Under the pieces are notes generated by a model, which worked only from the letters and a program-made list of their open reading frames with translations, searched no databases and had not been told where the DNA came from. Made by a program: the position numbers and the translations under genes. A stretch of DNA of 64,000 bases from Candidatus Binatia bacterium (GTDB taxonomy: Bacteria > Desulfobacterota > Binatia > UBA9968 > CAXXLF01): the NCBI GenBank assembly GCA_963664015.2, contig CAXXLF010000001.1:416001-480000 (forward strand). The letters run 5' to 3'. Positions 16,940 to 55,479 of the stretch are shown here, one piece after another (the first letter of the stretch is position 1; each line of letters starts with the position of its first letter).

Positions 16940-17075
16940 TTTTGGCAACTCACTATCTGCAGTTCACGATCCACAGTTAATTGTCAACTAATCAAAAATG
17001 ACTATAAACCAATCAACTTACGGGGCACCGGCCACAAACCACGTGCCATTAACCATTGACGAATGACCGCTGACT
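16940..17075. repeat. Degenerate heptamer array (CAGTTAA/CCATTGA class)
   Basis: cagttcacgatccacagttaattgtcaact ... ccattaaccattgacgaatgacc. Confidence 0.45.
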
Positions 17076-17076
17076 T

Positions 17077-17238
17077 TCAACCATTTAAAATTCCCTTTGT
17101 CCAATCTCGATTGTCCTGATACCAACCGACCAGGTTTGCCAGACCCTCGTCGAGAAAGGTCGTGGACTGCCACTTCAGCAAATTTTTTTCCTTGGAGATA
17201 TCCGCCCAGGTAGCAAGCACGTCCGCCGCATGGCGAGG
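17077..17238 (-). pseudogene. 3' remnant of a paralogue of the 18046-19086 epimerase
   Basis: Translates PRHAADVLATWADISKEKNLLKWQSTTFLDEGLANLVGWYQDNRDWTKGILNG*; matches the C-terminus of the upstream epimerase; no 5' part. Confidence 0.85.
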
Positions 17239-17242
17239 AATC

Positions 17243-17600
17243 TGGTTGATTGGGTTTCTTGAGTTGATAGCGCTAGTTGAGTTTTTTGAGTTAGTCGAGT
17301 CCGTTGAGTGGCTTCTCAGGTTGATTCGGTTTCTTTAGTTTACCTTCCGCCTCAGGAGGATCGGGCTGAGGTCTGTCTGGTTCGAGAGATCCGACTCCAG
17401 ATGTCGGAGGTCAGAAAGCCATCGGATCTAGAACGGTTCGCGCAAAGGGCGCCAAGTTAAGAGAGAATAAAATAGTTTTTTTCTTTGCGAGCTTCGCGCC
17501 TTAACACCAAAAACTTCATTTAGCTTGTCAAATAGTCGTTAGGCCGAGTCATTATTTTCTATTCGCCATTCGCGGACTTATGATCTCTGTTCTCTGACAT
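17243..17600. repeat. Modular repeat cassette: 9-mer array, CCGCC hairpin, TCAGAGG heptamers, CGCAAAGGGCGCCAAG module with its inverted partner
   Basis: ggttgattgggtttcttgagttgat..., cttccgcctcaggagga, gtcggaggtcagaaag, cgcaaagggcgccaagtt ... ctttgcgagcttcgcg. Confidence 0.75.
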
Positions 17601-17844
17601 TTGGGAGCCAGATGATTGCTAGCGAATTCCAGATAAGCTTCCGCCATATCTGCATCCCCAGGGTTATGAGGACGCAGCAAGTTGCACTTCTGCAGATATA
17701 TGTGATTTGTGCTCAGTAGGCTCGACCGTCTGGATTGAAGGTCTACTAAATTTGCCTATATAACCGGTCTAATTGTTCGGTTTATAACGTATTTTCGGTA
17801 TTTTGTCTATAGAGACTATCTTATTTCTAGCTGGTTTCTCTGGC

Positions 17845-18000
17845 CTGCGCCGTGAAATAATATCTCCGATTATTACCTTATCAACCCCCTCTAGCCACTA
17901 TTTCACCGGGCGAACTGGCTGCTGCTTACTGTCGCCTGCCCTCTGCTGTGTTAGCGCTTTACCCTCCGCGCTATGCTCTTTGCTACCTCCTGCCAGCTGC
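17845..18000. repeat. CCGTGAAAT...ATTTCAC inverted-repeat element followed by heptamer arrays
   Basis: gccgtgaaata (17849) / tatttcaccgggc (17899); then ctgcttactg and gcgctatgctctttgc. Confidence 0.6.
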
Positions 18001-18045
18001 ATCATTGATCTCCCACTTCTGTCCTAGGACATCGACGATAGTATA

Positions 18046-19086
18046 TTATTTGGTCACTATCTCCATTGTCCAATCTCGATTGTCCTGATACCAGCCGACC
18101 AGGTTGCTCAGCCCCTCCTCGAGAAAGGTCGTGGGCTTCCAATTCAGCAGTTTTTTAGCCTTGGAGATATCGGCCCAGGTTGCTAGGACATCCGCGGGAT
18201 GTCGAGGCTTATATTGGATTTTTCCAGATTTCTTCACCAGCCCTTCAATCAACCTAATGGCCTCATTCAAAACTACCGGTTTATCGGAACCGAGGTTGAT
18301 AATCTCGAATCCCAACGGCTTGAGGGAAGCCACCGTTCCCCGCGCGATATCGTCGACGTAGGTAAAATCCCGCGACTGCTTGCCATCTCCAAAGACAGTG
18401 ACCTCTCGGCCTTCGTTGATCCACTGAACGAATCTAAAGAGGCTCATATCCGGCCGGCCTCCCGGACCGTAGACTGTAAAGAATCGAAGAACTGCCACAT
18501 CGATCTTATGAAGGTAATAGTATGTATAACAGAGCGCTTCAGCCGCCTTCTTTGAGGCTGCATAGGGAGAGAGGGGTTGGTCGGTGGGGTCGGATTCGCG
18601 AAAAGGTTTATTTAGTTTGTTTGGTTTATCTAGTTGCTCTGGTTTGTTTAGATTGTCTAGTTGCTTCGGTTGGCCATAGAGGCTGGAGGTCGATGCGAGG
18701 ACAAATTTGTTCACGCCGAATTCGCGGCATAGGTCAAGGAGGTTGAGACATCCCCCGATATTGGTCTCGTAGTAAATCCAGGGGTTATCGACGGACGGTC
18801 GGACACCGGCGCGGGCGGCGAGGTTGATTACAGCGTCAAGAGGCGAATGGCGAATAGCAAATAGCGAATGGAATAAATCCTTGAGTGCGGCCCGGTCACA
18901 GATGTCGAGGCGATGGAAGTCGAAGCCGGGTTTGCCCTGGAGCTGGGCGAGGCGCCAGTCTTTGAGACGGACATCATAGGCATCGTTAAGATTGTCAACT
19001 CCAATGACATGGTGGCCATCCTGAAGTAACAATTCACAGACTTTCGAACCGATAAAACCGGCGGAGCCGGTGACGAGAATGTGCAT
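18046..19086 (-). CDS. NAD-dependent epimerase/dehydratase (UDP-glucuronate 4-epimerase/WcaG-like) with two in-frame repeat insertions
   Basis: GSAGFIG, LAARAGVR, YAASKK, LRFFTVYGP..RPDM, RDFTYVDD. Confidence 0.9.
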   Translation of the reverse strand: MHILVTGSAGFIGSKVCELLLQDGHHVIGVDNLNDAYDVRLKDWRLAQLQGKPGFDFHRLDICDRAALKDLFHSLFAIRHSPLDAVINLAARAGVRPSVDNPWIYYETNIGGCLNLLDLCREFGVNKFVLASTSSLYGQPKQLDNLNKPEQLDKPNKLNKPFRESDPTDQPLSPYAASKKAAEALCYTYYYLHKIDVAVLRFFTVYGPGGRPDMSLFRFVQWINEGREVTVFGDGKQSRDFTYVDDIARGTVASLKPLGFEIINLGSDKPVVLNEAIRLIEGLVKKSGKIQYKPRHPADVLATWADISKAKKLLNWKPTTFLEEGLSNLVGWYQDNRDWTMEIVTK

Positions 19087-19087
19087 G

Positions 19088-19528
19088 GTGTTTATTGGGT
19101 TTCTCTAGTTTATCTAGTTCGTTTAGTTGATTTGGTTTCTTTGGATTATTTAGTCTCTTCGGTCTATCTGGTCTATTCAGGCACTCACGTCTAATCAGTC
19201 TATGTGGTCTGTCTGGTTGATCTTCCGCCAGAGGCGGATCAGCCCCCGCCTAAGGCGGGTCCCCCTCAGGAGGATCGAGCGGAAGTTTGTCTCGTCTCTT
19301 TAGTCTATCTAGTTCTTCCCGTTCGTTGAGTTCCTTGGGTTTTTTTAGTTATCGATTTTCTCTAGTTTGTCGAGTCTCTTGAGTTCGTTGTGCTCTTTGA
19401 GTTGGTGTGGTCCGCAGTCAGGAGTTCCGTGCTGGTTTTTCGATTAACTGTTAACCATTGACTATTAACTACTTTCTGATCTCTGACCTCTGACCTCTGG
19501 TACCTGCCATTTGCTATTGGCCAACTAA
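19088..19528. repeat. Modular repeat cassette: 9-mer arrays with nested CCGCC hairpins, shared 90-bp block, heptamer arrays
   Basis: 9-nt periodicity 19090-19220 and 19290-19400; hairpins 19222-19280; tctgacctctgacctctgg. Confidence 0.8.
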
Positions 19529-19529
19529 C

Positions 19530-20090
19530 CTACCGTCTTCCGATCATTTCCTGATTCAAGACCAATCGGGTCTGGCGCCCTAGGAGATCGAGCAGAACAG
19601 CCACTCGCTCCGAACCCTTCATCTCACTCTCGAAGAGAGCTTCGAGGCTTGCCATCGGCCCTTCCTTGATCAGAACGGTCTCACCGGCCAGGTATGGCCG
19701 GGGTTTGTAATCTGCCACACCATCGGGGCAGCGCTTCCGGAGATCGGCGACCACTTCCTCCTCTACTTCCGTAATGTTGTTTCCGAATCTTACAAAGTCC
19801 TTAACCCCTGGAGCATACCTTGCGGCCTTGCCGGCAACAAAAAGATCCAGTCGACAGAACAGATATCCGGGAAAGAGCGGATCCAACACCTTTTGAAACC
19901 GGCTCCCTATCCGGCGCCGCATACGAACCCACGGCAAAAAGACCTCCAGGTCAAGATCCATATACCTCCTCTCAACGGTCTTTTCTTTTTTGACCTTGGT
20001 CTGGACTACATACCAACGAAGCCCGGTGTTAAATACTGCGCGACTTTTGCTGCTATCCTTCATAAAGCAAATCCTAATTAATGGCTCCAA
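19530..20090 (-). CDS. NusG/RfaH-family transcription antiterminator paralogue
   Basis: WYVVQTK, PLFPGYLF NGN domain, KOW-like GETVLIKEGP; heads the glycan locus. Confidence 0.85.
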   Translation of the reverse strand: MEPLIRICFMKDSSKSRAVFNTGLRWYVVQTKVKKEKTVERRYMDLDLEVFLPWVRMRRRIGSRFQKVLDPLFPGYLFCRLDLFVAGKAARYAPGVKDFVRFGNNITEVEEEVVADLRKRCPDGVADYKPRPYLAGETVLIKEGPMASLEALFESEMKGSERVAVLLDLLGRQTRLVLNQEMIGRR

Positions 20091-20836
20091 AGAGACCTAT
20101 TTCCGTAACTAAAGTCTCCACTCTATCCGGGAACCTTCCGTCCTGTATGCGTTTTTCCACCTTACCTACCGCAATGGCTACAGCGCCGGCCTTGACACCG
20201 AGAAGGGTCCCGATCGACAGCAAAGTAAGCTGGGTTTCTTTTCTGATTAAATACATGGTGAGGTGCTGCGCGATAGCCTTACGACTCCTCTTCTGCATCT
20301 CTCCATCCCCATCCAAACCCATGGTAAGGCTGATCTGCCGGATAATGTCTTTGGCTTTTATAAGATCGGCGCCGTCGATTTGAGGCCGGTTGGATGATAC
20401 CATTCTAGGAGCACCGAGGGTGGGGTTTATCCCATTTTTATTCTCTTTGAGTACGGGGACCCACCGGCATAGACGGTGAATCTGGCCGGTAAAATTAATG
20501 AGTTGATCCTTGGGCAAAAGCAGGCTTTTATAACGCCCATCAAAGAGGGTGCCACTCCTCTTGTAACGTCGGTTAAAATAGGCGACATAGCTCGTGCCTA
20601 ATCCCTGCATGAACCTGCCGATATTCGTCCTTGGAGTCTCCAAAATTATCTGGAGATGGTTGGTCACGAGGATATATCCGTAAAGGCGGCAACCCAATCG
20701 TTTTCTGTAGCGGTTTAAAAGATCTATGTAATAGGATTGATCCTTAGTAATCACGGAAGATCGCTTGACGATTGTTGCATTCAACCGTGATACAGTACAA
20801 GGCATTTTCAAATTGAGATTTGAGCGTGCGTGTCAT
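20074..20836 (-). pseudogene. Degenerate RAYT/IS200-like (Y1 HUH) transposase domain + DnaA-C-like HTH, frameshifted near 20748
   Basis: MTRTLKSQFENALYCITVECNNRQAIFRD in one frame, continuing as KDQSYY..YGYILVTNHLQI..MQGLGTSYVAYFNRRYKRSGTLFDGRYKS and a C-terminal MYLIRKETQLTLLSIG HTH in another. Confidence 0.7.
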
Positions 20837-21109
20837 TGCTTTACAAAGGTAATAAGAGCAATGAAGACACTGTAAGGTACTGTAATGGTAACAAATGTCA
20901 AGTAAAAACATTAAAAGCCTGCCCCCTTTGTCACGAACCTTTAATATCAATGAATAGAGCGCTAACCCTAAGGCTGTGGGTAAATTACTAACAGTCCGTG
21001 CGTAACGGATTCTAAGTATTTAGAATGTTGGAACTCTTCGCTAGTTTTACTAAAAAGGAATGACTATTATTTCAGAAGAGATTTTTATTTTATCTGTAAG
21101 GGTATTTTT

Positions 21110-22228: not shown

Positions 22229-22358
22229 GCCCCGTACCGTAGACTCGAAAAGTACAGCCCCCCCTTATGGTAATAGACGGCAGATTTTCACTACTCGTCG
22301 GACCGTAGTGGCGAAGGCTCCGACACCCTAATCCTGGATCTTTTTTCCGGATCGGTGC

Positions 22359-23156: not shown

Positions 23157-23159
23157 GGG

Positions 23160-23454
23160 ACAGTTATTAGTTATTGGTCAATAGTAAAGGGTGAATGGTA
23201 AATAGTTAGTCAAGGGGAAATCGTGAAGCATCAATAGTTATTGGTCAATCGGGAACAGCAAATAGCGAATCGTGAAAAGCAAATAGTCAATGTTTAATAG
23301 TACCTGCCGGGAACTGGAGTGTAAAGCTTTAGGGTGAAGGCGTTTGTTGGGTTATTTGTGTTTATTGAGTTCGTTGTGCTCTTTGAGTTGGTGTGGTCCG
23401 TAGTCAGTAGTTCCGTGCTGGTTTTTCGATCAACTGTTAACCATTGACTATTAA
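23160..23454. repeat. Modular repeat cassette: AATAGTC/GCGAATA heptamers, 9-mers, shared 90-bp block
   Basis: agttattagttattggtcaatag, gcaaatagcgaatcg; 23365-23454 nearly identical to 19379-19468. Confidence 0.8.
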
Positions 23455-23479
23455 GGATTCACGATTTACCAATCTATGC

Positions 23480-23920: not shown

Positions 23921-23924
23921 CCGT

Positions 23925-24222
23925 TAACCAGACGTCGGAGATCAGAGATCGGCAAGTAGTTAATAGTCAATAGTTATTGGTTATTTGTCAATGGTTAACA
24001 GAACAGAAACCCAGATCCTGGCACGTAACAATGAGCCCAACTTAGCCGCGTTCAACTAGATAAACCTCAGGCGGATCCACCAGAGGCGGACCCGCCTTTG
24101 GCGGGGACTGATCCGCCTCTGGTGGAAGATAGACCTGATAACCCCAAAAACCCAGCAAACCCGAGAAACTGAACGAACTAAACCAACCAGATAGACTAAA
24201 AAACGAAATCAACCAGAGCAAC
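23925..24222. repeat. Modular repeat cassette: heptamers, nested CCGCC hairpins, 9-mer array
   Basis: gtcggagatcagagatcgg, taatagtcaatagttattgg, ccaccagaggcgga, aacccgagaaactgaacgaactaaac. Confidence 0.8.
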
Positions 24223-24226
24223 CGCC

Positions 24227-24679: not shown

Positions 24680-24680
24680 T

Positions 24681-24861
24681 CGGCTGCTGAAAAAGACGCA
24701 TATGCCAACAGGCTGCTTCAAGCAGACGCCTATGATAGTGGCGGTTAATCGGCCGGGATAATTTTCTCGCTCTAAGCAGAGTCACTCCAACGTACCGCCT
24801 AAGTACGCCTCCGCTCGTCGATCTTTCGCGCGCCTCGCCTCTGAAATTTTTTTGAACAGTC
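24681..24861 (+). mobile_element. MITE/REP-like element with terminal inverted repeats GGCTGCTGAAAAA...TTTTTGAACAG
   Basis: Imperfect TIRs; core also present in reverse orientation at 32875-32970. Confidence 0.55.
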
Positions 24862-25029
24862 TGGAAACAGAGTTTTTCAAACCCACTAGGTCTGAACCAC
24901 ATTCTTATCGGCGGACCGTGGGTCCGAATAATACGCCTTTAACACGCGTTCAAAGGGCTTGACGGGATGACCGAATGTGATTAATGTATCACTCTAGTGA
25001 ATCCTAATAGAATTTGGAGGCGTTGTTCT

Positions 25030-26250: not shown

Positions 26251-27206
26251 GCGCGATCATTGCAACTAAAGGTCTGACCAAGCGCTACCGGGACCTGATC
26301 GCAGTTAACGATCTCAACCTCGACGTTGAACAAAAAGAGATATTCGGGTTCCTCGGCCCCAACGGTTCCGGCAAGACGACGACTATCCTGATGCTCCTGG
26401 GGCTGACCGAACCGACGGGCGGTGATGCCACCGTCTGTGGTTTTAATCCAACCAGAAACCCGTTGGAGGTAAAAAGACGTGTCGGCTACCTTCCCGAGAG
26501 CCCGGGCTTTTACGAGGACCTTAGCGCCGAGGACAACCTGCTCTATATCGGTCGCCTGAACCGGGTCGATGGCATTGAGAACGGACATCGCATCGGGGAG
26601 GTCCTTGAACAAGTGGAACTCGCCGCCGAGAAGAATCGCCCGGTGAGAGAATTTTCCCGCGGTATGAAGCAGAGGCTAGGCTTTGCCGAGGTCCTGATCA
26701 AGGAACCTGAGGTTATCATACTGGATGAGCCGACACTCGGGATCGATCCCGATGGCGTCAACCGAATCCTTGACCTGATCCTCAGCCTCAATCGGGATCA
26801 GGGACTCACGGTCATGCTCAGCTCTCACCTACTCCACCAGGTACAGCGGATCTGCAACCGTATCGGAATCATCGTCAACGGCAAAATGATCGTCCATGGC
26901 ACGGTGGATGTGCTAGGCAAAGCCATCCTCAGAGAGCACCAGTGGAATTTCCTGCTCGAGGTTGCGGGTCAAACGGATCAGTTGCAGTCGGATCTCGAGT
27001 TGCTTCCCGGTGTCGGCAAGGTAGAGCCGCGCGTGAACGGTTGGTTCTTACGTTGCACCAAAGACGTACGAGCCGAACTGGTTTCCCTGGTTCAGGGAAA
27101 GGGCTGCTCACTACTGCAACTGCGCTCCGAGGACCCTACATTGGAGGAGATATATCTCAAATACTTTCGGGACGAGGGTAAACAGCCAGTTGCAAATAGC
27201 GAATAG
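26247..27206 (+). CDS. ABC-2-type transporter ATP-binding protein
   Basis: GPNGSGKT, FSRGMKQR, LDEPT; ATGA overlap with upstream gene. Confidence 0.92.
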   Translation: MSAIIATKGLTKRYRDLIAVNDLNLDVEQKEIFGFLGPNGSGKTTTILMLLGLTEPTGGDATVCGFNPTRNPLEVKRRVGYLPESPGFYEDLSAEDNLLYIGRLNRVDGIENGHRIGEVLEQVELAAEKNRPVREFSRGMKQRLGFAEVLIKEPEVIILDEPTLGIDPDGVNRILDLILSLNRDQGLTVMLSSHLLHQVQRICNRIGIIVNGKMIVHGTVDVLGKAILREHQWNFLLEVAGQTDQLQSDLELLPGVGKVEPRVNGWFLRCTKDVRAELVSLVQGKGCSLLQLRSEDPTLEEIYLKYFRDEGKQPVANSE

Positions 27207-27460
27207 TTGTTAGCCCGATGTCGGAGGTCGGCAAAAAATCAATAGTCATTGGTCAACGGCGAATAGAAAATAGTTAATAGTTATTAGTCAACAGTTAATC
27301 GAAAAACCAGCACGGAACTACTGACTACGGACCACACCAACTCAAAGAACCCAACAAAACAGATCAACCAAACAAACTAGATAAACTAAACGATCCCGAA
27401 AAACTCAAGAAACGCAATAAACTCGATCAACTCGACAAAGATAGAAGAGATAGACCAAGG
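27190..27460. repeat. Modular repeat cassette inside the ABC operon
   Basis: gcaaatagcgaatag, aatagtcattggtc, reverse copy of the 90-bp block, 9-mer array aactagataaactaaac. Confidence 0.8.
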
Positions 27461-27479
27461 ATATAAGGACGGAGCTAAT

Positions 27480-28376: not shown

Positions 28377-28409
28377 ACTGACCAGACAACAGACGTCGAA
28401 GATCAGGTA

Positions 28410-28790
28410 ATGCAGCTGAACTCGGCGAAGGACCTGGATGTTTATAAGAAAATCTACCAATTGGCTATGAAGGTCTTCGAAATGAGCAAAGACTTCGCCG
28501 CCGAGGAGAGATTTGCTTTAACAAGCCAAATTCGGCGGGCATCACGTTCTGTTTGCCTGAATCTACGTGAGGCCTGGGCAACGAGAAGGTATGAAGCGTA
28601 TTTTGTAAGTAAACTAACTGATTGCAACGGAGAAAACAGTGAGACGGATTCCGCTTTAGATTTCTCCAAATATTGCGGTTACATCACACGATAGCAACAT
28701 CATGAATTGGTGGCCCTTTGTCAACAAGTTGGCAAGATGCTCGGTAGCATGCTCAAGAATCCCGGGCCCTTTCTAACCTCCGAGCGCTGA
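28410..28790 (+). pseudogene. Four-helix-bundle protein (23S rRNA IVS/Avd-like family) with in-frame TAG at 28692
   Basis: DLDVYK..F..EERFALTSQIRRASRSVCLNLREAW..RRY..F..KL..GEN.ET; reads on past the stop as QHHELVALCQQVGKMLGSMLKNP. Confidence 0.85.
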
Positions 28791-28905
28791 TTTTTTGACT
28801 TCTGACCTCTGAGTTCTGTCGTTCTTTACCCCTTTGCACGGGGCATCTATTTCCTGACTGATCTCCGATGTCTGACTTCTGATCTCTGCCCTCTGACCTC
28901 CGCCC
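28791..28905. repeat. TCTGACC/TCTGATC heptamer array
   Basis: cttctgacctctgagttctg...tctgacttctgatctctgccctctgacctccg. Confidence 0.8.
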
Positions 28906-28908
28906 CCT

Positions 28909-29358: not shown

Positions 29359-29382
29359 TTCTCACTCCTTAAATAGTTAGAA

Positions 29383-29610
29383 TTCGGAGGTTGGAAGTCA
29401 GAGATCAGTTGGAAAAAAGACAACTCGCACTGTGGGGGGACCAGTTGCGACCGAGACTGCTCAGCACGGCTGTGACGTCTACTCCACAGGGCAAGAGGAC
29501 GCCAAGTTTGAAAAATTGAACACATCTCTTTCTAAGCTTGGCGTCTTGGCGCGAGAAACATTAGTATTCCTGATCTCCGAACTCTGACTTCTGATCTCTG
29601 ATCTCTGGCT
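29383..29610. repeat. Mirror-symmetric repeat cassette with filled scaffold site
   Basis: Forward heptamers, CTCGC-[IR element]-GGACGCCAAG, inverted CTTGGCGTCTTGGCG, reverse heptamers. Confidence 0.75.
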
Positions 29611-29629
29611 AACATCTATTTTCCATTTT

Positions 29630-30778: not shown

Positions 30779-30781
30779 TTG

Positions 30782-31172
30782 GAAGTTAGAGGTCAGAAAG
30801 CCAGAGATCAGACATCGGAATTCGGAGGTCAGAGGTCAGTTGGGAAAAAGATCACTCGCCCTGTGGAGTATTGATCTCAACGTAGGCCGAGTATACCCCC
30901 AAGGGCTTACTCCACGGGGCGAGCGCAAAGATGCAAAGGGCGCCAAGTTCATCGGGTTATTTGGGTTTGTTGGGTTGCTTGCGTTTATTGAGGCCATCTA
31001 GTCAGTCTCGTTTCTCTGGCCTGCCCCGTAAAATTGCACTGGGAAGACTCTCGTAGCTCTACCGGCGAGGTATTTCACTGGGCGCTATGCTCTTTGCGTT
31101 TTACCGTTGACGATTGACCGATAACCATTGACAATTAAGTACTTACTTTTTGCGATTCGCCATTTGCTATTG
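30782..31172. repeat. Modular repeat cassette with two nested IR elements
   Basis: Heptamers 30782-30840; 16-bp IR at 30855/30908; 9-mers; cctgccccgtaaaat...atttcactggg; reverse heptamers. Confidence 0.8.
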
Positions 31173-31173
31173 G

Positions 31174-34484: not shown

Positions 34485-35498
34485 TCACGATGCGTTTTTT
34501 GCAAATTTGCCCATGCTCAAGATAAACCGTTTGATCTCGCCAACCACATCATTCGAGGCGGGCAAATAGGGCAGGATGACCCGGGTGGCCCCCGCTTCGA
34601 TAAATGGTTGGGCCCGGGACCAGATTTCTTCCGCCGAAGTTGCAGGCACGAGGGGAAGGCCGTTAAAGAGCCGGTCGGTAATGGCCGCTCGCGCGGCTTG
34701 AAATCCAGATCTCTTCCAGGCCGTACGCATGCCTTCCACTTCAGCACCAAACCCCATACGGGTCAAAATGTCCCGGTAGTAATCTCCCAACGCATAGTAG
34801 GTGAGCACTTTGCCAAGCGCCTCTCGGGCCCCCTCGTAACTGTTTCCAATGCAGCAACGCACCTTGCAGATCACTTCGATCCGACTGGGATCCTTACCTG
34901 CCTCCTCCGCCACTAGTTGGACTTCCCATACGATCCGACGAATCTGTTCCGGATCGGCCATATTGATCAGGACTCCGTCGGTTAACCTTCCGGCCAGCCG
35001 GCTCATCTGGGGTCCAAACGCTGCAAGATAGATCGGGATGTGCCTGCCCGACGGTTTGAAGGCCCGCTTGAAACTCTCGGCACGAAAATACTTCCCGGTG
35101 AATCCCAACTTTTAACCCTCCATCGCACGTCGGACAATCTCCAGGTACTCCTTGATCCGGCCTATGGGTCGATCGAAAGGAACTCCATGCCAACGGGCAA
35201 TGGTCGGATTGGATACCCCTACACCTAAGAGGAACCTTCCCCGGGAAAGTTCCTCCAGACCCACCGACTGAAGCGCCAGTGTCGCCGGCGTTCTACCCAA
35301 CATGTGAAAGACCGCGGAACCGATCTCAATACGTTTGGTGACAGCAGCGATGGAAGCCAGCCTCACCGTCGGATCTTTGTTGTTTGCCTCACCGGACCAT
35401 ACGCAGCGAAACTCATTTTCCTCCACCAGACAGGCAAGCTCGGGAATGGCGTCCATCGGCAACTGGGCACCCGAGTTGAATTCGATGTCGAGCTGCAT
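34485..35498 (-). pseudogene. LLM-class flavin/F420-dependent oxidoreductase, split by in-frame TAA at 35112
   Basis: GRFLLGVGVS..RIKEYLEIVRR | PIYLAAFGPQM..AG..DG in the same frame on either side of one stop. Confidence 0.85.
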
Positions 35499-35544
35499 GT
35501 GGGGAACATTAGGCAGTGAATAGTCAAAGGTCAATAGCAAAGCC

Positions 35545-35886
35545 CAGGGATCAGAGGACAGAGGTCAGAAGCTGGCGAATGGCGAAAAGTCATTAGTAAA
35601 AAGTCAATGGTTATTGGTCAATGCTAAATCGGGAAGAAGCAAAGAACATAGCGCAAAAAGCAAAGCGGCCCGTAAAATACCTCTTCCGCAAGAGGTCAAA
35701 AAATCCTCCCACCGCAATTTGACAGGGCAGGCCAGGCAAATGAGAGAGGGAGTGCAACGAACTCGATAAACTCAACAAACTAAGGGGACCCGAGAGACTA
35801 AATAGACCGGACCAACGAGATAGACCAGATAGACCAAACGAACCCAATCAACTCAATAAACGCAAGCAACTCGACAAACTCAGTGA
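35545..35886. repeat. Modular repeat cassette
   Basis: Heptamers of several classes, IR element 35668-35730, 9-mer array 35755-35886. Confidence 0.8.
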
Positions 35887-35887
35887 A

Positions 35888-36352: not shown

Positions 36353-36437
36353 AGCCTAACGGAAACATCCTGAGATCAGCCTGCCCATGTGTTCCCTATT
36401 GGCCATTGGCACTATCCATAAAACGGTTTTAACACGA

Positions 36438-36620
36438 TTTAGTTCGTCGAGTTTATAGAGTTGATTGGGTTTACGGGGTTTATCGAGTTCATTGGGTTTA
36501 TTGCGTTTGTTGAGTTTATCGAGTTTTTTGAGTTTGTTTGGTTTGACGGGTTCATTGAGGCCGGTGGGCTAGGTAATTGACTAATGACCATTGGCTAGCC
36601 CCTATTGGCTATTCGCTGCG
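36438..36620. repeat. 9-mer tandem array plus heptamers
   Basis: gagtttata/gagttgatt/gggtttacg/gggttatcg... about 13 units. Confidence 0.85.
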
Positions 36621-36646
36621 TCCCGCGCTTTCACGTTCACGTGTGC

Positions 36647-37747: not shown

Positions 37748-37887
37748 TATCGGGAAGGTGAAGTTGTATCCTCAAGCGATAATCTCGAGGGTTGCTCGAG
37801 ACACCGAAGATGCAAAAGGAGCATAGGTGATCTTTCCCCTTATCAATAGATAGCGTTGGACCGATGATCTGTCAATAACTCCCTATA

Positions 37888-38300
37888 GCCAGAGGTCAGA
37901 AGTCAGAGATCGGAGGTCGGAGATCAGACGACGGAAAGCCAGAAGTCGAAGGTCAGGGGTCAGTTGGGGAACAGACAACTCGCGTCCATCGAGAACCTCC
38001 CTTCGACGGGCTCAGGGTGGTGAGGGAACTCGAAACACAGGACCCCCGAGGGGAATCGAGGGGCAAAGGCGCAAAGGACGCCAAGTTCATCGGGTTACTT
38101 GAGTTCTTTGGGTTCTTTGAGTTAGTGTGGTCCGTATTCCAGTCGTTGCTCATCTGTCGGCGCTTTGCCCTCTGCGCTATGCTCTTTGCTTTGTGCTGTT
38201 GCCGATCTCTGATCTCCGTCCTCTGACCTCTAGGATGCGCTATTTGCCGATCTCCGACCTCTGTCTCTGCCTCTGTCCGACCTCTGGCCATTTGCTATTT
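37888..38300. repeat. Mirror-symmetric repeat cassette with doubly nested insertion
   Basis: Forward heptamers 37888-37960, scaffold + insert 37979-38087, 9-mers, reverse heptamers 38200-38290. Confidence 0.8.
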
Positions 38301-38359
38301 GCCCTCCACAATTTACAATTGACGTTCGGCCTTTAATTTAAAAGTTGCTCATACTCCTT

Positions 38360-40777
38360 ATGGCATTTCTATCACCCTTGCTTCGTCCCCTCCTCTGGTA
38401 CTGGTCGCGCTGGGCGCGGCCCCAGATAGAAGGGAGCCTTCCCTTACCCGGCTTGACGGACAAGGTAACGGTACGTTGGGATCTCTATTCGGTACCTCAT
38501 ATTTTTGCCTCTAGCGAAGCCGACCCCTTTTTTCCCCAAGGTTATCTGTATGCTCAGGAGAGACTCTGGCAGATGGATTTCAACCGCCGTTTTCACTCGG
38601 GGAGACTGGCCGAGATCCTGGGAGAATGGACCGTCCCGTGGCAGGAGGTATCCATCCAATTCAAAAACAGGGCAACCGTCGACCTGGACTATTTTGTCCG
38701 TCTCATGGGTATACGCAGGGCGGTATGCTCCTCCCTCGATTCGATACCGAAGGAGTTCCTGAGGATCCTTGAGCCATACAGCAACGGGTTCAACCGCTAT
38801 ATCGAGACCCACCTCAGGACCTTGCCGGTTGAGTTCCGTCTCCTTCATTACCAACCGGACCCGTGGCAACCGGCGGACTGCCTCACCATCTGCAAGGGTT
38901 TCGCCCTCCTCCTATCGACAGCCCTGTTCACACGACTCACCATGGATACGCTCGCCCGGCAACTCAGAGACCAGAGGGACAAGTTCGAGACCCTCATGCC
39001 GTCGTACCCACAGTGGGGCGCGAGTGTTACTCGCTGGAACTCGGACCAGACCGCAGACCAGTCACGTGAGCTCCTGCGGTTTTTAAACGGAACTTTTTAC
39101 AACAGCCAATGGACCGCTTCGGGTCACGGCAGCAACAACTGGGCCCTTTCACCAGACCGCTCGATAGATGGGAAGCCCATTCTGTGCAATGAACCTCATC
39201 TGAGATTGACACTACCGTCGATCTGGTACCTCACCTGCATGCAGGCCCCCTCACGCACCCAAGCGGATGACGGATACGCCGTCTGGGGAGCCTCCATTCC
39301 GGGATCTCCCTGTATTCACGTGGGACATAACCGCCGTATCGCCTGGGGTGTAACGGCCGGCCTGTGCGACGATGTCGATCTTTATCGGGAGAGGATCCAC
39401 CCCCACGACCCCAACCGCTATCGTGTTGGCGATGGATGGGATCCGATGCAAACGATCGAAGAGAGGATTCGCGTTCGGGGTGGTAAAGAAATCAAAAAGA
39501 ACCTGCGCTTCACCCGTCACGGCCCCGTAATCTCCGACTTCATCGGACCCACCCTGACCGATAAAGTCCTTTCGCGACAATGGACCGCCCTGGACCGGAG
39601 CGAGGACTTCCGCGTCGTCTACGGAATAAACCGGGCCGGGAGCTGGAATGAATTTCTCCAGTGCCTGTCGTACCAGAGCGCGTCTACCCTAAACTATGTC
39701 TACGCAGACCGCGAGGGAAACATCGGCTACAGCCTAGCCGGCAGTATCCCCCGCAGGCGCCAGGCCCCTTCTCTGACTCCCCTTCCCGGGTGGAGCGGTG
39801 AGTTCGACTGGGACGGGTACGTTCCCTTCAGCGATCTTCCCCGGCTCTACAATCCACCAGAAGGCATCGTGGCTACGGCAAACAACAGCATTGCCGATCC
39901 CTCCTATCCCTATTACCTGTCAACCCTGTTCGATCCTCCCTACCGTATCGAGCGGATCAAGGAACTCCTTATGGCAAAAGAAAAGTATTTTCTCGACGAC
40001 ATGTCGAAAATGCAGGAGGACGTCGTCTCGTTACAGGCCAAGCGGCTGATTGAAGTCCAACACAACGACCTGGAAGCAATCGTCCACCGGACCCCTCACC
40101 TCAGCCCAATCGTAAGTAAACTGATGCACTGGGATGGCCATTGCGGCTCCAAAAGCTCAGAGGCAGCCCTTTATCATGTCTTTTACCAGCGCCTCATGGT
40201 CAATCTTCTTGGACCCGACCTCGGCGATGAGCTGTTGGTCGCCTAATTGGAACTCTTCAATCAGGCGATGGTACCGACGGACCAAATCTTTCGGGATTCC
40301 AGTTCACCATGGCTTCGATCCCGCTCGCGGCGGTCTCTCGTCGAACATAGCATTGAGGAGGCCTGGTCCGAGCTCAAATCTCGCCTGGGGGATCGTGAAG
40401 AGACGTGGGAATGGGGGAAGCTCCCCACGATGACGTTGGATCACCCCCTGGGCCGGATCGGCATCCTAGCCCCTTTCTTTTCCGTGGGCCCCTTCCCGGC
40501 ACCGGGGGACTCGACGACAGTGAACAGCGGGTTCTATAGCCACTCGTCCCCCTATCAACAAGTGGTGGGGACCTCCCTAAGGATGGTACTGAGCCCAGGG
40601 GATTGGGAACAGAGTCGGATAATCCTTCCATCGGGCCAGTCGGAAAATCCACTATCCGACCATTACCGCGACCAGTTCCCAAAGTGGTCCAACGGTGGCT
40701 CTATTCCATTGAATCCCCGTTCGGAACAGACGAAAGATTGCCCACTCCTAACCCTCATGCCAATCACACAAGGTTAA
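38360..40777 (+). pseudogene. Penicillin acylase (Ntn hydrolase) family, in-frame TAA at 40244
   Basis: QERLWQMD, GSNNW autoproteolysis site, NYVYAD, C-terminal PSGQS..HY.DQ in the same frame after the stop. Confidence 0.85.
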
Positions 40778-41730: not shown

Positions 41731-42331
41731 ATGAGGAGCCATATCGCCCCACTGGCGGGGCTTTTTTTCTGCCTGCAGGCAGCCCCCCCGCCTTCCCGAC
41801 GGACCTCTACAAGTGGAAGGACAAGCGAGGGGTCATCCATTTCAGCGACAATCCTCATAACATCCCGGAAGGATTCAGAGAATACACCAGGAGAATCCGT
41901 TCCCTGGGCCCCTCCTCAAGCTCCAACAGACCTCCCGATTATGGGATACGAGCTACAATCCCGTTCAAAAAGAAGGGGATGACCGCTATCGTACCGGCCA
42001 CCATTAACGACGGGCCTGAGGGCGACTTCATACGCGATACAGGGGCGTCGTATACCGTTATCTCAACTAGCGTAGCCCAAAATGCCAATATCAACCTGGA
42101 TAAGCAATACCCCAAAGTTGGCCTACAGACAGCAAATGGGATCATTGACGCGCCACTGGTAAACTGGAATCGATTGAGAGCAGGGGCATGCGGGTAACCG
42201 ACCTTACCGTCGCAGTCCATGACTTCTCCGCGGACAATTCCATTGCCAGTCTGTTAGGGCTCAATTTCCTGAGCCATTTCCGTATGGAACTGGATGCCCA
42301 GAATGGTGTCCTGAACCTGGAAAAGAAATGA
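41731..42331 (+). pseudogene. DUF4124 + retropepsin-like aspartyl protease, two frameshifts
   Basis: LYKWKDKRGVIHFSD, DTGAS, LQTANG, then LLGLNFLSHF in another frame; shifts near the 41762-41790 homopolymers and near 42160. Confidence 0.75.
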
Positions 42332-42456
42332 AGCCTACAAGGGCTTATCCAGCCTTCGTAGCCCAAGCAACTACGGCGGAGTAGGCCGCCCGTGATATCC
42401 GCCCTTTCTTCGGCGGAATCCGCCGAAGCACCCGCTTCGTCTGCGAAGGCGGATAA
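42328..42456 (+). repeat. ~130-180 bp palindromic dispersed element (ATGAAGCC...TTCGGCGGAATCC.CCGAAG), copy 1
   Basis: Homologous copies at 49669, 53507 and 55479 (minus). Confidence 0.8.
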
Positions 42457-42787
42457 CCCGTACCTCATCTCTACCCCACGGTCATCCCCTCACACCCGAT
42501 TATCCCCCGTGCAACCCGCACAGAGTGCCCGCTTTCACACCATAGGCCATCTGGTACTCCAAGGTATTAGAGTGCAAGCCTATGCTCGGTTCGCAGCGCA
42601 ACAATGACAGAGGAAAAAATTGGAGAGGGAAACTTTCCGGTGCGGATTCTACTGGGTCGGCTCCAAGGAAAGCAGTATAGTCTGCCACCACATATAGAAA
42701 GGCGAGGTGCAGTGGATCCAGGAGATGGCCGGGTGCACCTCACCACGAAGTGGGGCTTTTGAATTTATTTTTTAAGAACCTCCTAAC

Positions 42788-46161: not shown

Positions 46162-46164
46162 GCC

Positions 46165-46622
46165 AGGGATCAGAGGTCGGAGGTCGGTAAGTAGTTATTG
46201 GTTATTAGTCAATGGTTGTTAGCGAATAGCAAATAGCGATTGGCCAGAGGCCGGATATCAGCAGCCAGAGATCGGACGACGGAGGTCGGACGGGCAGAAG
46301 ATGTCTCGCGCAAAGGCGCAAAGGGCGCCAAGTTCGGAGACCAGATGTCAGAGGTTAGAAGTCAGACGTCGGAAGTGTGAGGTCAGCTACTTTGCTGATC
46401 TCTGATCTCTAACATCTGGGTTATTGGGTTTGTTGAGTTGCTTGCGTTTATTGAATTCATTGGGTTCGTTTGGCCCGCTATCAAAGGTCAGAAGTCAACG
46501 GTCGGATGTCGGACCTGGGGAGTCGGAGCCCAGCTGCAACACCGACTTCCGACCTTTGTTCTCTGATATCTGGTATCTTCTATTTGCCGATCTCTGATCT
46601 CCGTCCTATGATCTCTGGGATG
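46165..46622. repeat. Modular repeat cassette containing the empty scaffold site
   Basis: Forward and reverse heptamer arrays, ctcgcgcaaaggcgcaaagggcgccaagtt at 46305, 9-mers 46420-46470. Confidence 0.85.
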
Positions 46623-46638
46623 TACCGTTTGCTGCTCA

Positions 46639-47385: not shown

Positions 47386-47389
47386 AACC

Positions 47390-48445: not shown

Positions 48446-48458
48446 TGAGTGACGTGAT

Positions 48459-49205: not shown

Positions 49206-49216
49206 GAGCCCCATCC

Positions 49217-49816: not shown

Positions 49817-49833
49817 CGGCCTGAATTGGGTCC

Positions 49834-53077: not shown

Positions 53078-53121
53078 GGTCAAAGAATCATTCGGACGGA
53101 AGCCGGGGAATCGAGTGCCCC

Positions 53122-53508
53122 TCAGTCAGCGCCGTTCCCCGTATTACGGGTCAAATGAGGTGCGCGTAAGTTAGGCATGTCACCGCCGTCATGAGTGAAA
53201 GCCTCTACCTCTTTCAAGTGGCGCTGGACGGTTTCCATAAACGAATTTAGATCGACCCCTTGGTACATGAATCCATAGGGCGCGAGCTTGTCCAGGCCCG
53301 AGCGCATGAGCTTGAGGGTCCCCATGGGGACGTTTTGCTCCCATTTAAAATAGGCCGCCGCGATCTGGATAATGCCCTGGTAGAAATCCCGGTCCTCGCC
53401 GTGCTCTTCCAGCCAGATCTCCTCCAGCGTCTCGTGGCATTCGAAAAAGAGCTCCCCGTTGAACTCCTCGATCCCTTTGAGAAAGCGTGCGTCCGGTGTA
53501 TTCTCCAT
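53122..53508 (-). CDS. DUF309 family protein
   Basis: FNGELFFECHETLEEIW, QGIIQ; true start at ATG 53508, the upstream ORF extension is repeat DNA. Confidence 0.85.
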   Translation of the reverse strand: MENTPDARFLKGIEEFNGELFFECHETLEEIWLEEHGEDRDFYQGIIQIAAAYFKWEQNVPMGTLKLMRSGLDKLAPYGFMYQGVDLNSFMETVQRHLKEVEAFTHDGGDMPNLRAPHLTRNTGNGAD

Positions 53509-53692
53509 GAAGCCTCCACGGGCCTGGGCCGAGGTATCCTTCATTTCTTCGGCGGAATCCGTCGAAGCACCTACGTTCGCCAAGGCTACGGCAGGTCCGA
53601 CAGTCGCATCCATCCATGGGTTCATTCAACCTTCGTAGCCGTAGGCTATTACGGCGGAGTAGGCCGCCCATGGTTTTCTGGAAAGGCGGATT
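53507..53692 (+). repeat. Palindromic dispersed element, copy 3
   Basis: atgaagcctccacggg...ttcggcggaatccgtcgaagc...ccttcgtagccgtagg...aaggcggat. Confidence 0.85.
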
Positions 53693-53757
53693 GACTTGAC
53701 ATCCCGTCGTGAGTGGTCTACTCACTTCCTTCGTTTATAGCATGGGCCTCGGGAACA

Positions 53758-55056
53758 ATGACAGAGACTGAAGAACCAGGCGCAGAAATTCGCCTCGATA
53801 TCGATTCACTGACCTACGGGCTAAATGGTATCGGCCGCGATCAGGGTCGCGTCGTGCTCGTCCCGGGCACCGCTCCCGGCGACAGGGTCGAGGTTCGAAT
53901 CACCGAAGCTAAAAAGAACTACGCCATTGGCGCAGTGACCCGCTTGCTCAAACCCGCCGCCGTGCGGCGGCAGCCCCCCTGCCCTTACGCTGGTAACTGC
54001 GGGGGATGTCCCTGGCAGCACATCGAGTACGAGGCCCAGCTCGCCGCCAAAGAAAAGTGCATCGAAGACGCGCTGCGTCGCATTGGAAAGCTGAAAGACT
54101 TCGAAATGCATCCCATCCTCCCGTCACCGAAGGAATTTCGCTACCGGCGCCGCATTCGCCTGCACTGTGACGTCGACAGAAGACTTGGTTTCCACCGCGC
54201 CGCAACCCACGAAGTGGTAGAGATCGATTCCTGCTTAATCGCGGACCTCAAGGCGGAAAAAAACCTTGCGACGGCCCGCACGTGGGTCCGTGGGTTGAAG
54301 ACCGAGATCCGTTACCTGGAAATCGTGGTCGGGGACCTGGGCAAAAAGGCCATGCTGGTGGGCAAAGCGGAAGGCGCATTTCATCCCGATGACGATGGAC
54401 TGTGTAAAGAACTATTGGAACAGGTTCATCAGGTGGGCGGCCTGATTCTTTCAGGACCGGGCTGGCGGCAATCCTGGGGCGAGGCGACCACCCTTATTCG
54501 CCTGGATAGCGGCTCTTGGGCCGAGGTGGATGGCGACATCTTCATGCAGGTCAACCGGGAGGCCAACCATCGCCTCGTCGACCAGGTCCTCAGCTGGGGC
54601 GAATTGGGGCCCGCGGACCGGCTGCTCGAGCTCTATTGCGGCGCGGGGAACCTCACCTTGCCCATGGCCCGCTTGAGCCGGGAGGTCGTGGCGGTGGAGC
54701 GAAACCGCCGCTCCATCGAGAGCGGAAAGAAAACCGCCCGGTTCAACCGGGCGGAAAATATTCACTGGGTCTGTACCGATGTCTTGAAGGCCGTAAGCCG
54801 GATGGCCAAGAGGGAAGAATGCTTTTCCAAGATCATCCTGAACCCGCCCCGAGCGGGAGCTAAGGGACTGGATCAGGACCTGCCGTCCCTGAAGGCCGAA
54901 AAGATATTTTATGTCTCCTGCGACCCGGCCACTTTGGCCCGTGACCTGCAGGCCCTGACCCGCAAGGGTTATCGCCTCACTCGCATCCAACCTATGGATC
55001 TGTTTCCGCAGACTTTCCACGTAGAGACCCTCGCCGAACTGGATCGCGTCTTTTAA
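53758..55056 (+). CDS. rlmD: 23S rRNA m5U1939 methyltransferase (TRAM + 4Fe-4S)
   Basis: TRAM domain, CPYAGNCGGC, ELYCGAG, NPPRAG, YVSC.P.TLARD, DLFPQT.HVE. Confidence 0.88.
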   Translation: MTETEEPGAEIRLDIDSLTYGLNGIGRDQGRVVLVPGTAPGDRVEVRITEAKKNYAIGAVTRLLKPAAVRRQPPCPYAGNCGGCPWQHIEYEAQLAAKEKCIEDALRRIGKLKDFEMHPILPSPKEFRYRRRIRLHCDVDRRLGFHRAATHEVVEIDSCLIADLKAEKNLATARTWVRGLKTEIRYLEIVVGDLGKKAMLVGKAEGAFHPDDDGLCKELLEQVHQVGGLILSGPGWRQSWGEATTLIRLDSGSWAEVDGDIFMQVNREANHRLVDQVLSWGELGPADRLLELYCGAGNLTLPMARLSREVVAVERNRRSIESGKKTARFNRAENIHWVCTDVLKAVSRMAKREECFSKIILNPPRAGAKGLDQDLPSLKAEKIFYVSCDPATLARDLQALTRKGYRLTRIQPMDLFPQTFHVETLAELDRVF

Positions 55057-55071
55057 CCAGTGGCGGGGAGC

Positions 55072-55330
55072 TAGACGTCAGAAATCAGAGATCAGAGGTC
55101 GGAGATCGGCGCGAGCCAGAAGTCAATGGTCATTAGTTATTGGTCAATGGCAAAGGCGGCAAAGCGTTAAGATTCAAGCGACTAGTGTTAAGTGTTGAGG
55201 GAATGAAGGGGGTAGGGTGTTGAGCCTAGCGAGTAATTCCGGACCCAATACCCTAGACCCAACCCCCTGCACCTCTTCTGAGAACTGATTACTTAACACT
55301 CATCACTGTCCGCGCTTGGCGCTTCGCACC
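55072..55330. repeat. Nested inverted-repeat cassette
   Basis: Heptamers; agtgttaagtgttgag / acttaacactcatcact; gggggtaggg / ccctagacccaaccccc. Confidence 0.7.
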
Positions 55331-55337
55331 AAATCAT

Positions 55338-55479
55338 AAGCGGCCTACGGCTACGAAGGCCGGATAAAGAAATGGATGGATGCGACTGTCGGATCTGCCG
55401 TAGCCTTTGCGAAGGTGGGTGCTTCGGCGGATTCCGCCGAAGGAAGGATACATCGGGCATGTGCCCGTGAAGGCTTCAT
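55338..55479 (-). repeat. Palindromic dispersed element, copy 4
   Basis: Reverse complement reads atgaagccttcacgggc...ttcggcggaatccgccgaagc...ccttcgtagccgtagg. Confidence 0.85.

Follow-up and report, generated by a model that had tools for sequence, protein, structure and literature searches.

The window analysed here is a 64,000-nucleotide stretch of a Candidatus Binatia bacterium genome, G000 (3.51 Mb in two contigs, 53.5% G+C), covering positions 416,001 to 480,000 of contig C1. Between window positions 16,940 and 55,479, thirteen spacers hold cassettes built from tandem, degenerate units of seven or nine nucleotides (heptamers and nonamers). These arrays form a period-specific, dynamic and partly palindromic repeat system at gene junctions, mostly intergenic and clustered in this region. 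They appear to be gene-less relatives of the small cassettes that carry a four-helix-bundle gene (S23p; TIGR02436, PF05635) in many bacterial phyla. The reading we favor, with a probability of about 0.55, is that the cassettes are intergenic repeat elements resembling the intervening sequences (IVS) of rRNA genes, whose full form consists of two inverted arms around a loop, and that almost all of those in this genome are gene-less, one-armed or rearranged leftovers. Most cassettes of the window are therefore best read as gene-less IVS-like repeat hairpins, accompanied by a single decaying gene copy.

Periodicity and array census

Each spacer was compared at lags 7 and 9 with 200 mononucleotide shuffles of itself, using a threshold of z ≥ 3. 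Twelve of the thirteen spacers reach the threshold at one of these lags, with a maximum of 11.0 at 46162-46638; the exception is 23921-24226, with z = 2.8 at lag 7 and z = 2.2 at lag 9. None of nine other spacers between 16.8 and 55.5 kb reaches it at either lag, nor does any of eleven coding controls. Tandem Repeats Finder (TRF) reports periods of 7, 9, 14, 18 and 27 in precisely the thirteen spacers.

The genome was then scanned with 56-nt windows and at least 62% lag matches, excluding a microsatellite-laden 160 kb of contig 2. This fixed-threshold scan detected 67 lag-7 arrays and 22 lag-9 arrays, compared with 0, 5, 1, 0 and 1 at lags 5, 6, 8, 10 and 11, respectively; the arrays are specific to periods 7 and 9. 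The 38.7 kb under study, which represent 1.15% of the scanned genome, contain 16 of the 67 period-7 arrays and 12 of the 22 period-9 arrays (i.e., 28 of 89). According to self-BLAST depth, dispersed repeats occur genome-wide and the window is unexceptional; only the 7/9-periodic arrays are concentrated in it. A copy-number profile of 11-mers was dropped as a measure, the word being too short.

About ten unit classes can be read from the array list, including CAGAGGT, AATAGTC/ATTGGTC, GCAAATA, GCNCTTT and GAGTTTATT-type nonamers. The first-pass annotation of this DNA, made from the sequence alone, had described the spacers as mosaics of one small vocabulary of 7- and 9-nt repeats, and both the periodicity and the unit classes bear this out. 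By rough calls of open reading frames (ORFs), 7 of the 22 nonamer arrays are inside long ORFs, compared with 3 of the 67 heptamer arrays, as DNA-level expansion filtered by the reading frame would give.

Four-helix-bundle genes between inverted arrays

The window holds one gene of the family, which the first-pass annotation had correctly listed as damaged:

28410-28760, plus strand: four-helix-bundle gene (23S rRNA intervening-sequence protein family), shortened by an in-frame TAG

This gene matches TIGR02436 with an E-value of 1.8e-19 and 69.9 bits (cut-off 24), and PF05635 with an E-value of 7.8e-23 and 81.2 bits (cut-off 33.8). The profile match ends at profile position 82-86 through the TAG, which is the only one met on read-through, and the tblastn match covers 28452-28757. 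The truncated copy has a downstream arm only, while loci with an S23p/PF05635 ORF in the loop occur among relatives and in distant phyla. The whole genome contains 89 arrays versus only three four-helix-bundle loci, two of them with in-frame stops and an intact one at C1:679083-679406; the suggestion of the first-pass annotation that this protein serves the cassettes is not supported.

Sixty four-helix-bundle loci were sampled, 30 from 17 relatives in the same order and 30 from five distant genomes. A period-7, -8 or -9 array lies within 200 nt of the gene at 39 of the 51 loci with full flanks, and array density is 2.99 per kb near the gene versus 0.27 per kb elsewhere in the same loci. Units of equal period are present on both sides of the gene at 31 of 56 loci; in 19 of these 31, the upstream and downstream units are reverse complements of each other with at most one mismatch, and only one of the 31 has the direct orientation. 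The flanking unit varies from one locus to another, and an inverted unit match between different loci occurs in 1.0% of 837 pairs. In six distant lineages, the genes lie between inverted arrays of a locus-specific unit, and across phyla the hairpin loop is the site of S23p/four-helix-bundle genes. The last upstream units, just before the start codon of the gene, often read like ribosome-binding sites.

The association suspected in the first-pass annotation also appears in genome content. In a sample of 151 genomes from the phylum, the gene occurs in 87 and the CAGAGGT-type array pattern in 22; the gene is present in 21 of the 22 array genomes, compared with 66 of the 129 array-less ones (Fisher p = 3.9e-5, a value that ignores kinship). 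Within the order, the gene is found in 4/4 genomes of family f1 and 13/13 of family f2, and the array pattern in 3/4 and 5/13, respectively; in the sister family f3, both are at 0/13. The GxxExxY gene, which had been named as another candidate partner, is absent from G000.

An orthologous pair shows a gene-present and a gene-absent state. Upstream of the epimerase gene, the relatives G003 and G004 (loci L228 and L231) have a four-helix-bundle gene between nonamer arrays, and the orthologous spacer of G000, 19087-19529, has arrays and a small-hairpin cluster, with no gene or relic of one.

Spread across phyla

Stretches of at least 3.5 CAGAGGT-type units number at least 125 in an exact scan with one genome per species, versus about one estimated by chance. 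Among the matches listed are Bacteroidota, Verrucomicrobiota, Acidobacteriota, Planctomycetota, Desulfobacterota and Nitrospirota, as well as Cyanobacteria, Ignavibacteriales, Binatia, Proteobacteria and others. The loci that were fetched contain other heptamers and nonamers alongside, plus inverted pairs.

Three individual loci are worth describing. In a Nitrospirota metagenome-assembled genome (MAG; locus L042, ~590-830), heptamer arrays and a G/C-rich hairpin seem to break a recJ-type coding sequence, either through insertion or through an assembly problem. In an Acidobacteriota MAG (L030, ~600-790), a CAGAGGT-type hairpin stands directly between the end of a deaminase-like gene and an apparent tRNA gene, and a gene-bearing cassette (L227) is likewise beside a tRNA gene.

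Cassette composition and folding

Folding was evaluated with RNAfold on the plus strand, against 30 dinucleotide shuffles per cassette. The cassettes and the array inside the neighboring epimerase gene are listed below in window coordinates; the loop and junction modules are described in the following section.

16940-18045: long spacer with heptamers (17019-17075), nonamers (17244-17309), a loop-module copy (~17400-17500) and reverse heptamers (~17560-17600); lag-7 z 6.2, lag-9 z 4.1, fold z -2.45 for 17230-17620
18600-18672, minus strand: nonamer array in the GalE-like epimerase gene (18046-19086), in frame; TRF period 9/18/27
19087-19529: two nonamer arrays around a CCGCC-type small-hairpin cluster, a 90-nt junction module (19379-19468) and heptamers; lag-9 z 7.9
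23157-23443: AATAGTC/ATTGGTC- and GCAAATA-type heptamers, nonamers and the second junction copy; lag-7 z 6.9
23921-24226: CAGAGAT- and AATAGTC-type heptamers, a CCGCC hairpin cluster and A/C-rich nonamers reaching the trmL start; fold z -3.7, attained through the small CCGCC-type hairpins
27182-27479: heptamers, the third (inverted) junction copy and A/C-rich nonamers; lag-7 z 3.8
28791-28908: reverse-orientation TCTGACC-type heptamers directly downstream of the four-helix-bundle gene, without a matching upstream arm; lag-7 z 4.5, fold z 0.05
29359-29629: hairpin cassette with a CAGAGAT-type left arm, a loop module containing inner hairpins of its own, and a right arm in reverse complement
30779-31173: CAGAGGT-type array, loop module with insert 2, nonamers and reverse heptamers of two other classes; lag-7 z 5.4, fold z -0.2
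35541-35887: CAGAGGA-, AATAGTC- and GCAAAG-type heptamers, then nonamers; lag-9 z 3.7, fold z +1.3
36353-36646: mainly a nonamer array of ~10 units of GAGTTTATT type (TRF 9.7 copies); lag-9 z 6.6, fold z +1.4
37870-38300: hairpin cassette with a long CAGAGGT-type left arm, a loop module bearing an insert-1-like hairpin, then nonamers and a right arm in reverse complement; lag-7 z 8.7
46162-46638: nested hairpin cassette with outer arms of CAGAGGT type, inner arms from other heptamer classes, a loop module in the "empty" state, nonamers and a second inner hairpin; lag-7 z 11.0
55057-55300: CAGAGAT- and AATGGTC-type heptamers; lag-7 z 8.1, fold z -1.8

The three hairpin cassettes fold much better than their shuffles: 29359-29629 at -102.6 versus -70.5 kcal/mol (z = -6.5), 37870-38300 at z = -4.9, and 46162-46638 at -198.9 versus -157.5 kcal/mol (z = -8.6). 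Their outer stems are formed by the pairing of forward and reverse-complement heptamer arrays, with the inner stems nested. Nine of ten controls fall between z = -0.9 and z = +0.2. The unrelated spacer 42198-42500, which has no 7/9 periodicity, reaches z = -4.5, and a weak four-helix-bundle-like tblastn match is found at 42641-42739 (E-value 0.041).

Some further features of these spacers are apparent. Among the arrays of the first spacer, 17094-17238 holds a 146-nt duplicate of 18063-18207 (86% identity), from the 3' part of the neighboring epimerase gene. The epimerase array is translated as a Lys/Pro/Asn-rich loop. In protein alignment, the G004 orthologue (L231:2008-3171) has a longer Lys/Pro/Asn loop and a second, 32-residue repeat-derived insert that is absent in G000. 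A 112-aa ORF inside 37870-38300 has no Pfam family match. The spacer rest at 55343-55475, after the last cassette, belongs to a different dispersed repeat family of ~80-130 nt that includes a GC-rich CTTCGGCGGATTCCGCCGAAG-type palindrome and is found in more than 20 other places of G000 at 80-94% identity (blastn with 55372-55475). A ~200-nt non-periodic repeat at 24680-24880 has eight other genome copies at 77-87% identity.

Shared modules and turnover

The cassettes share parts that are not themselves tandem repeats. The 90-nt junction at 19379-19468, which has a non-repetitive core, is 97% identical to 23365-23454 and ~90% identical to the reverse complement of 27265-27358 (blastn); the three copies, at 89-97% identity and with one inverted, lie within 8 kb of each other in G000, and none was found in 30 relatives. 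A GCGCCAAG-type module occurs at 17442, 30933, 34082, 38071 and 46318 and at dozens of other genome sites. A common part order is seen in 30779-31173 and 37870-38300, and partly in 29359-29629: a CAGAGGT-type array, the loop module directly after the last unit, a variable hairpin, the GCGCCAAG-type motif, nonamers, and reverse heptamers. Given these common junction modules and the same part order in three cassettes, the evidence supports one related family rather than independent slippage products, and the statement of the first-pass annotation that module junctions recur between loci is upheld.

Accretion by nested insertion, also proposed at that stage, is visible in the loop module. This module has dozens of genome copies, 18 of which were aligned: seven are empty, five carry a first insert (a ~50-nt hairpin) and six carry a second (a ~75-nt hairpin), both at one fixed point, and no target-site duplication was seen by eye at the inserts. 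The spacer orthologous to 29359-29629 in G002 and G004 (L011 and L012) contains a CAGAAGT-type hairpin with a loop of ~12 nt, versus ~165 nt of loop module in G000, as read by eye since the MAFFT alignment is poor.

Arrays persist at orthologous spacers in other genera, but these spacers are not identical: those of G002 and G004 keep the same repeat classes with different unit counts. Of their two CAGAAGT-type hairpins, one has ~10 left-arm units and the other ~4, while the right arm and the loop are conserved. The module at 30838-30950 is found at 85-92% identity in several places of G001, G003 and G004, where flanking genes are ~72% identical. In one low-depth contig from a related strain, the array at 28894 is shorter by exactly 7 nt. 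Turnover consists of unit gain and loss, local copying and nested insertion, which argues against static low-complexity DNA.

These changes in unit number also fit a rival explanation, in which the arrays are a pure mutational by-product of polymerase slippage in prone lineages, with no element, mobility or gene tie, and with convergent similarities. Apart from the differences between orthologues and the missing 7 nt, this explanation is in line with the in-frame expansion of nonamers within a gene and with the fact that most arrays have no partner. Heptameric simple repeats are also described as over-represented in many bacteria, and a slippage explanation based on the polymerase active site has been proposed, in the section of Rehm 2015 devoted to this point (PMC4692102, citing Mrazek 2007). 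Slippage alone, however, does not account for the junction with its non-repetitive core, for the part order of three cassettes, or for loop-module insertions at a fixed site. Nor does it account for the matching of locus-specific inverted arms, seen at 19 of 31 gene loci where 1% would be expected across loci, or for a CAGAGGT-type unit recurring across phyla far above chance. We thus consider slippage as the sole cause rather unlikely.

Interpretation of the cassettes

The IVS-like reading would work as follows. If transcribed with their flanking genes, paired arms would form a long imperfect RNA duplex. By analogy with the S23p-bearing 23S rRNA element of Coxiella, RNase III, whose gene is encoded in the genome, would cut this duplex and trim the element out, and the element would therefore be tolerated at housekeeping-gene junctions at little cost. 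Arrays would grow and shrink by replication slippage, and modules may spread locally by copying and by insertion into loops. The cassettes would then be selfish or neutral, and not dedicated regulators.

Several results weigh against this reading, and the first concern the hairpin itself. Only four of the thirteen cassettes fold at z ≤ -3, the other nine being between -2.5 and +1.4. Under a conservative test requiring an exact 6-mer and a partner within 450 nt, an inverted partner exists for only 5 of the 28 arrays in the region and 10 of the 89 in the genome, hence most arrays in the genome cannot act as hairpins alone. Symmetry is a trait of a minority of cassettes, and most arrays are one-sided. 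Terminal inverted repeats as a stable stem are found in three cassettes here and, at the unit level, at 19 of 31 four-helix-bundle loci, and not in most arrays. The mirror symmetry claimed in the first-pass annotation consequently holds for the three cassettes it had named, and fails as a general rule; its expectation of folding beyond shuffles is likewise borne out for four cassettes and not for the remaining nine.

The gene link has weak points as well. Twelve other cassettes have no four-helix-bundle ORF or relic, the only weak match in the window being the one at 42641-42739. Among 80 CAGAGGT-type array loci from other phyla, a single one has a four-helix-bundle ORF within 600 nt, and arrays therefore far outnumber genes. 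The five distant genomes (Desulfosarcina, Planctomycetia, Saprospiraceae and two Verrucomicrobiae) were chosen for holding arrays, which makes them a biased sample. The nonamers that flank the gene at L228 and L231 are direct, not inverted. The in-frame nonamer arrays inside the epimerase gene, which differ between orthologues, point to a process of expansion at the DNA level for which no RNA function is required. The arrays need not descend from gene-bearing cassettes, and the gene may simply settle in arrays.

In a bolder version, the arrays and the S23p/four-helix-bundle genes would together make up a single selfish element, undescribed and pan-bacterial. Each subunit of the pentameric ring protein would recognize one tandem unit of the element's own arms, in RNA or single-stranded DNA, and the protein would promote arm-loop-arm copying into other hairpin loops; gene-less arrays would be its non-autonomous progeny. 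We regard this version as doubtful. If true, the short tandemly repeated repetitive (STRR) sequences of cyanobacteria, the TAACTGA-type repeats and the rRNA intervening sequences would be explained together.

The units could also be sites for an RNA- or DNA-binding protein (the pentameric four-helix-bundle protein, S1, Csp or a CsrA-type protein) that tunes the translation or stability of neighboring genes. Arrays here often abut start codons, and units such as CAGAGGT and CGGAGGT look like ribosome-binding sites. The leading arm tends to be the purine-rich one: the upstream flank is more purine-rich than the downstream flank at 44 of the 60 four-helix-bundle loci, and in convergent spacers the arrays that are purine-rich on the plus strand are 13 of the 15 in the left half versus 3 of the 11 in the right half. 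For TAACTGA repeats just upstream of start codons, post-transcriptional regulators are proposed in the pertinent part of MacGregor 2015 (PMC4679880). However, the palindrome shows this purine-first order on both of its strands, and the order is therefore uninformative on transcription direction. Moreover, units vary by locus, and with about ten classes in one genome a single binder is insufficient; the flanking genes are unrelated housekeeping genes, and array content is not conserved between orthologous spacers. Taken together, these points make binding-site arrays improbable. As a separate observation, paired arrays in G000 and at loci L219-L278 nearly always have the purine-rich arm first, on either strand.

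The HUH (Y1) candidate

The first-pass annotation had also suggested that an HUH nuclease, present as a damaged gene, might serve the cassettes. The candidate is the following ORF:

20074-20811, minus strand: 245-aa ORF with sub-threshold Y1_Tnp and DnaA_C helix-turn-helix matches, shorter than the homologues of relatives

It scores 21-22 bits against PF01797 (cut-off 23) and 22.3 bits against PF08299 (cut-off 31.5), and is the sole Y1_Tnp match in the genome. Of 31 genomes in the order, 28 contain homologues, most of which have open frames of ~280-350 aa. The G000 protein aligns with them only from residue ~22, its first ~20 residues being missing, and its translation reads His-Leu-Gln where relatives would have His-x-His, a degenerate motif.

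If this ORF were a single-copy domesticated HUH (Y1) transposase, the hairpins could have been spread by it in the manner of repetitive extragenic palindromic (REP) elements and their paired forms (REPINs). The ORF does sit in the array-rich region, and in G003, G004 and G025 a homologue is 1-3 kb from a four-helix-bundle gene on the same contig. Yet both domain matches are under the Pfam cut-offs, the protein is incomplete as described, and homologues are present in 11 of the 13 genomes of family f3, where arrays and four-helix-bundle genes were not found. Copy number is also unrelated to the arrays, with one Y1-like copy in G000 and 18 in G005 versus 15 and 0 array pattern matches, respectively, and the arrays are not conserved 20-40-nt palindromes. 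A spread of this kind is thus very unlikely, and the proposed nuclease role is not sustained. The CTTCGGCGGATTCCGCCGAAG-type family resembles REP elements more closely than the arrays do.

Genomic setting

The 15-56 kb part of the window contains ordinary housekeeping genes. These include sugar-nucleotide enzymes, an RfaH-like factor, AroE, Lgt, Dtd, TrmL, an ABC transporter and an aminotransferase, followed by RpoH, HtrA, NrdJ, MlaEFD, LolCDE-like genes and RlmD. Gene order is conserved in G002 and G004, which belong to another genus, with coding DNA ~71% identical. All cassettes sit between or inside protein-coding genes and never in an rRNA helix. A search of the window against Rfam gave no match at gathering scores, rRNA families included, and a tRNA search of the window found none.

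The array DNA is real and not an assembly artefact, because contigs of three public runs, which come from two studies, reproduce the window with 0 differences; these contigs end at repeated modules. A fourth public run represents a related strain, and most of its contigs stop at spacers. The "joints" in those contigs were rejected as evidence of excision, as they connect repeated modules. A metagenome scan for near-identical relatives, aimed at a presence/absence comparison, gave 69% protein identity at best. For annotation, short ORFs called within such cassettes should be taken as spurious, and assemblies should be expected to break at these modules.

A cyanobacterial host was considered and rejected, since the HIP1 octamer occurs only 49 times in the genome and the gene content (RpoH, RfaH-like, MlaDEF, LolCDE) is not cyanobacterial-looking. 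In a tblastx comparison, the Binatia-labelled locus L045 showed only 33% identity to G000. Two genes of the window are nonsense pseudogenes: an in-frame TAA at 35112-35114 (minus strand) splits an LLM-class F420-type oxidoreductase (34485-35540) into two ORFs, and one at 40244-40246 (plus strand) does the same to a penicillin-amidase/PvdQ-like acylase (38345-40777). Finally, the first ~150 kb of contig C2 hold dozens of long (CA)n, (GA)n and (GGGA)n microsatellites of up to 226 nt, with none in C1; this start of C2 looks like eukaryote-like DNA or a misjoin.

Comparison with known systems

Intergenic heptamer arrays of the STRR kind have been known since about 1990, and S23p-bearing IVS for about as long. 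STRR heptamers were reportedly described by Mazel in 1990 in heterocystous cyanobacteria. As in STRR, several degenerate tandem heptamer classes stand side by side between genes here, with the 67 period-7 arrays and about ten classes given above, and strings like what we take to be STRR units (TTGGTCA- and CAACAGT-like) occur in the AATAGTC/ATTGGTC class. Unlike STRR, the present arrays belong to a different phylum with few HIP1 copies, and include nonamers as well as heptamers. The STRR literature reached reports no explicit architecture of inverted arms and no gene family linked to the repeats; a passing mention in Rehm 2015 (PMC4692102) presents STRR as three tandem heptanucleotides of Calothrix PCC 7601.

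Two other heptamer systems can be compared. According to the portions of MacGregor 2015 (PMC4679880) on their distribution, TAACTGA heptamers are found in Beggiatoaceae, Cyanobacteria and Bacteroidetes, where other heptamers are mixed in and strains differ by 7-nt indels. The likeness lies in patchy, multi-phylum intergenic arrays that are often by start codons, with no transfer mechanism evident in those portions. The difference is that, as far as those portions go, the TAACTGA work considers a single unit, for the most part in direct orientation and as candidate sites for regulators; a search of its text (PMC4679880) for the terms S23, helix bundle, intervening sequence and RNase III returned nothing. 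The GGGAATC/GGGGATT repeats of Xanthomonas and Nostoc are found at the same junctions in related species with variable length and sequence, and some arrays are inverted pairs able to form stem-loops, in the account that the relevant part of Rehm 2015 gives (PMC4692102). Those units, however, are G-rich and were studied as quadruplex formers, whereas the units here are not of the G-tract kind and the cassettes combine many classes.

Among dispersed elements, REP and REPIN elements were reportedly tied by Bertels and Rainey in 2011 to REP-associated tyrosine transposases (RAYTs). REPs are fixed palindromes of 20-40 nt that flank a functional single-copy Y1 transposase gene, and are thought to be non-autonomous and tolerated at junctions. 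The cassettes resemble them as short intergenic palindromic repeats in many copies, but each arm is a tandem run of 7-9-nt units that differ from locus to locus, and the one Y1-like ORF scores below threshold and shows no correlation with the arrays. For Nostoc, Elhai is said to have described in 2008 small dispersed repeats that sit within other repeats; tiny hairpin-like inserts at a fixed position, with "empty" and "filled" copies, recall them. With respect to miniature inverted-repeat transposable elements, inverted arms exist, no transposase parent was found, and no target-site duplication was seen by eye. A clustered regularly interspaced short palindromic repeat (CRISPR) array was rejected, given that 7-9-nt units stand head to tail without spacers, versus repeats of 25-40 nt with unique spacers.

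The first-pass annotation had called the family undescribed. Heptamer arrays and S23p-bearing IVS are both in print, and to this extent the claim does not hold; it may stand for their union, as literature searches on the gene family together with repeats found no gene-between-arrays design outside rRNA genes, a point on which the supplements of MacGregor 2015 and Rehm 2015 may bear.

The closest relative is the 23S rRNA IVS of Coxiella burnetii. As laid out in the parts of PMC4990558 that concern this element, an S23p ORF lies in the loop of a 28-bp terminal stem, two to three tandem GACAGAT heptamers are found upstream in a strain-dependent count, and RNase III cuts at the first repeat; Leptospira, Brucella and Salmonella are also cited there for ORF-bearing IVS. 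The present system is like it in having, at loci of relatives and of distant phyla, an S23p ORF in the loop of an inverted-repeat stem, and further in its variable upstream heptamers (GACAGAT being close to CAGAGAT), a decaying ORF and a host with RNase III. It is unlike it in location, since the elements here and in relatives are between protein-coding genes and not in rRNA helices (25 or 45), and in build, since the arms here are long many-unit arrays, most copies lack an ORF, and several classes and a loop module are combined and nested. Tying heptamer arrays and S23p genes together outside rRNA genes and across phyla makes two vague puzzles testable. To these known systems, the window adds a densely populated example from a new lineage, the presence of nonamers along with heptamers, an orthologous gene-present/gene-absent pair, nested insertions at a fixed site, and repeat arrays expanded in frame inside an enzyme.

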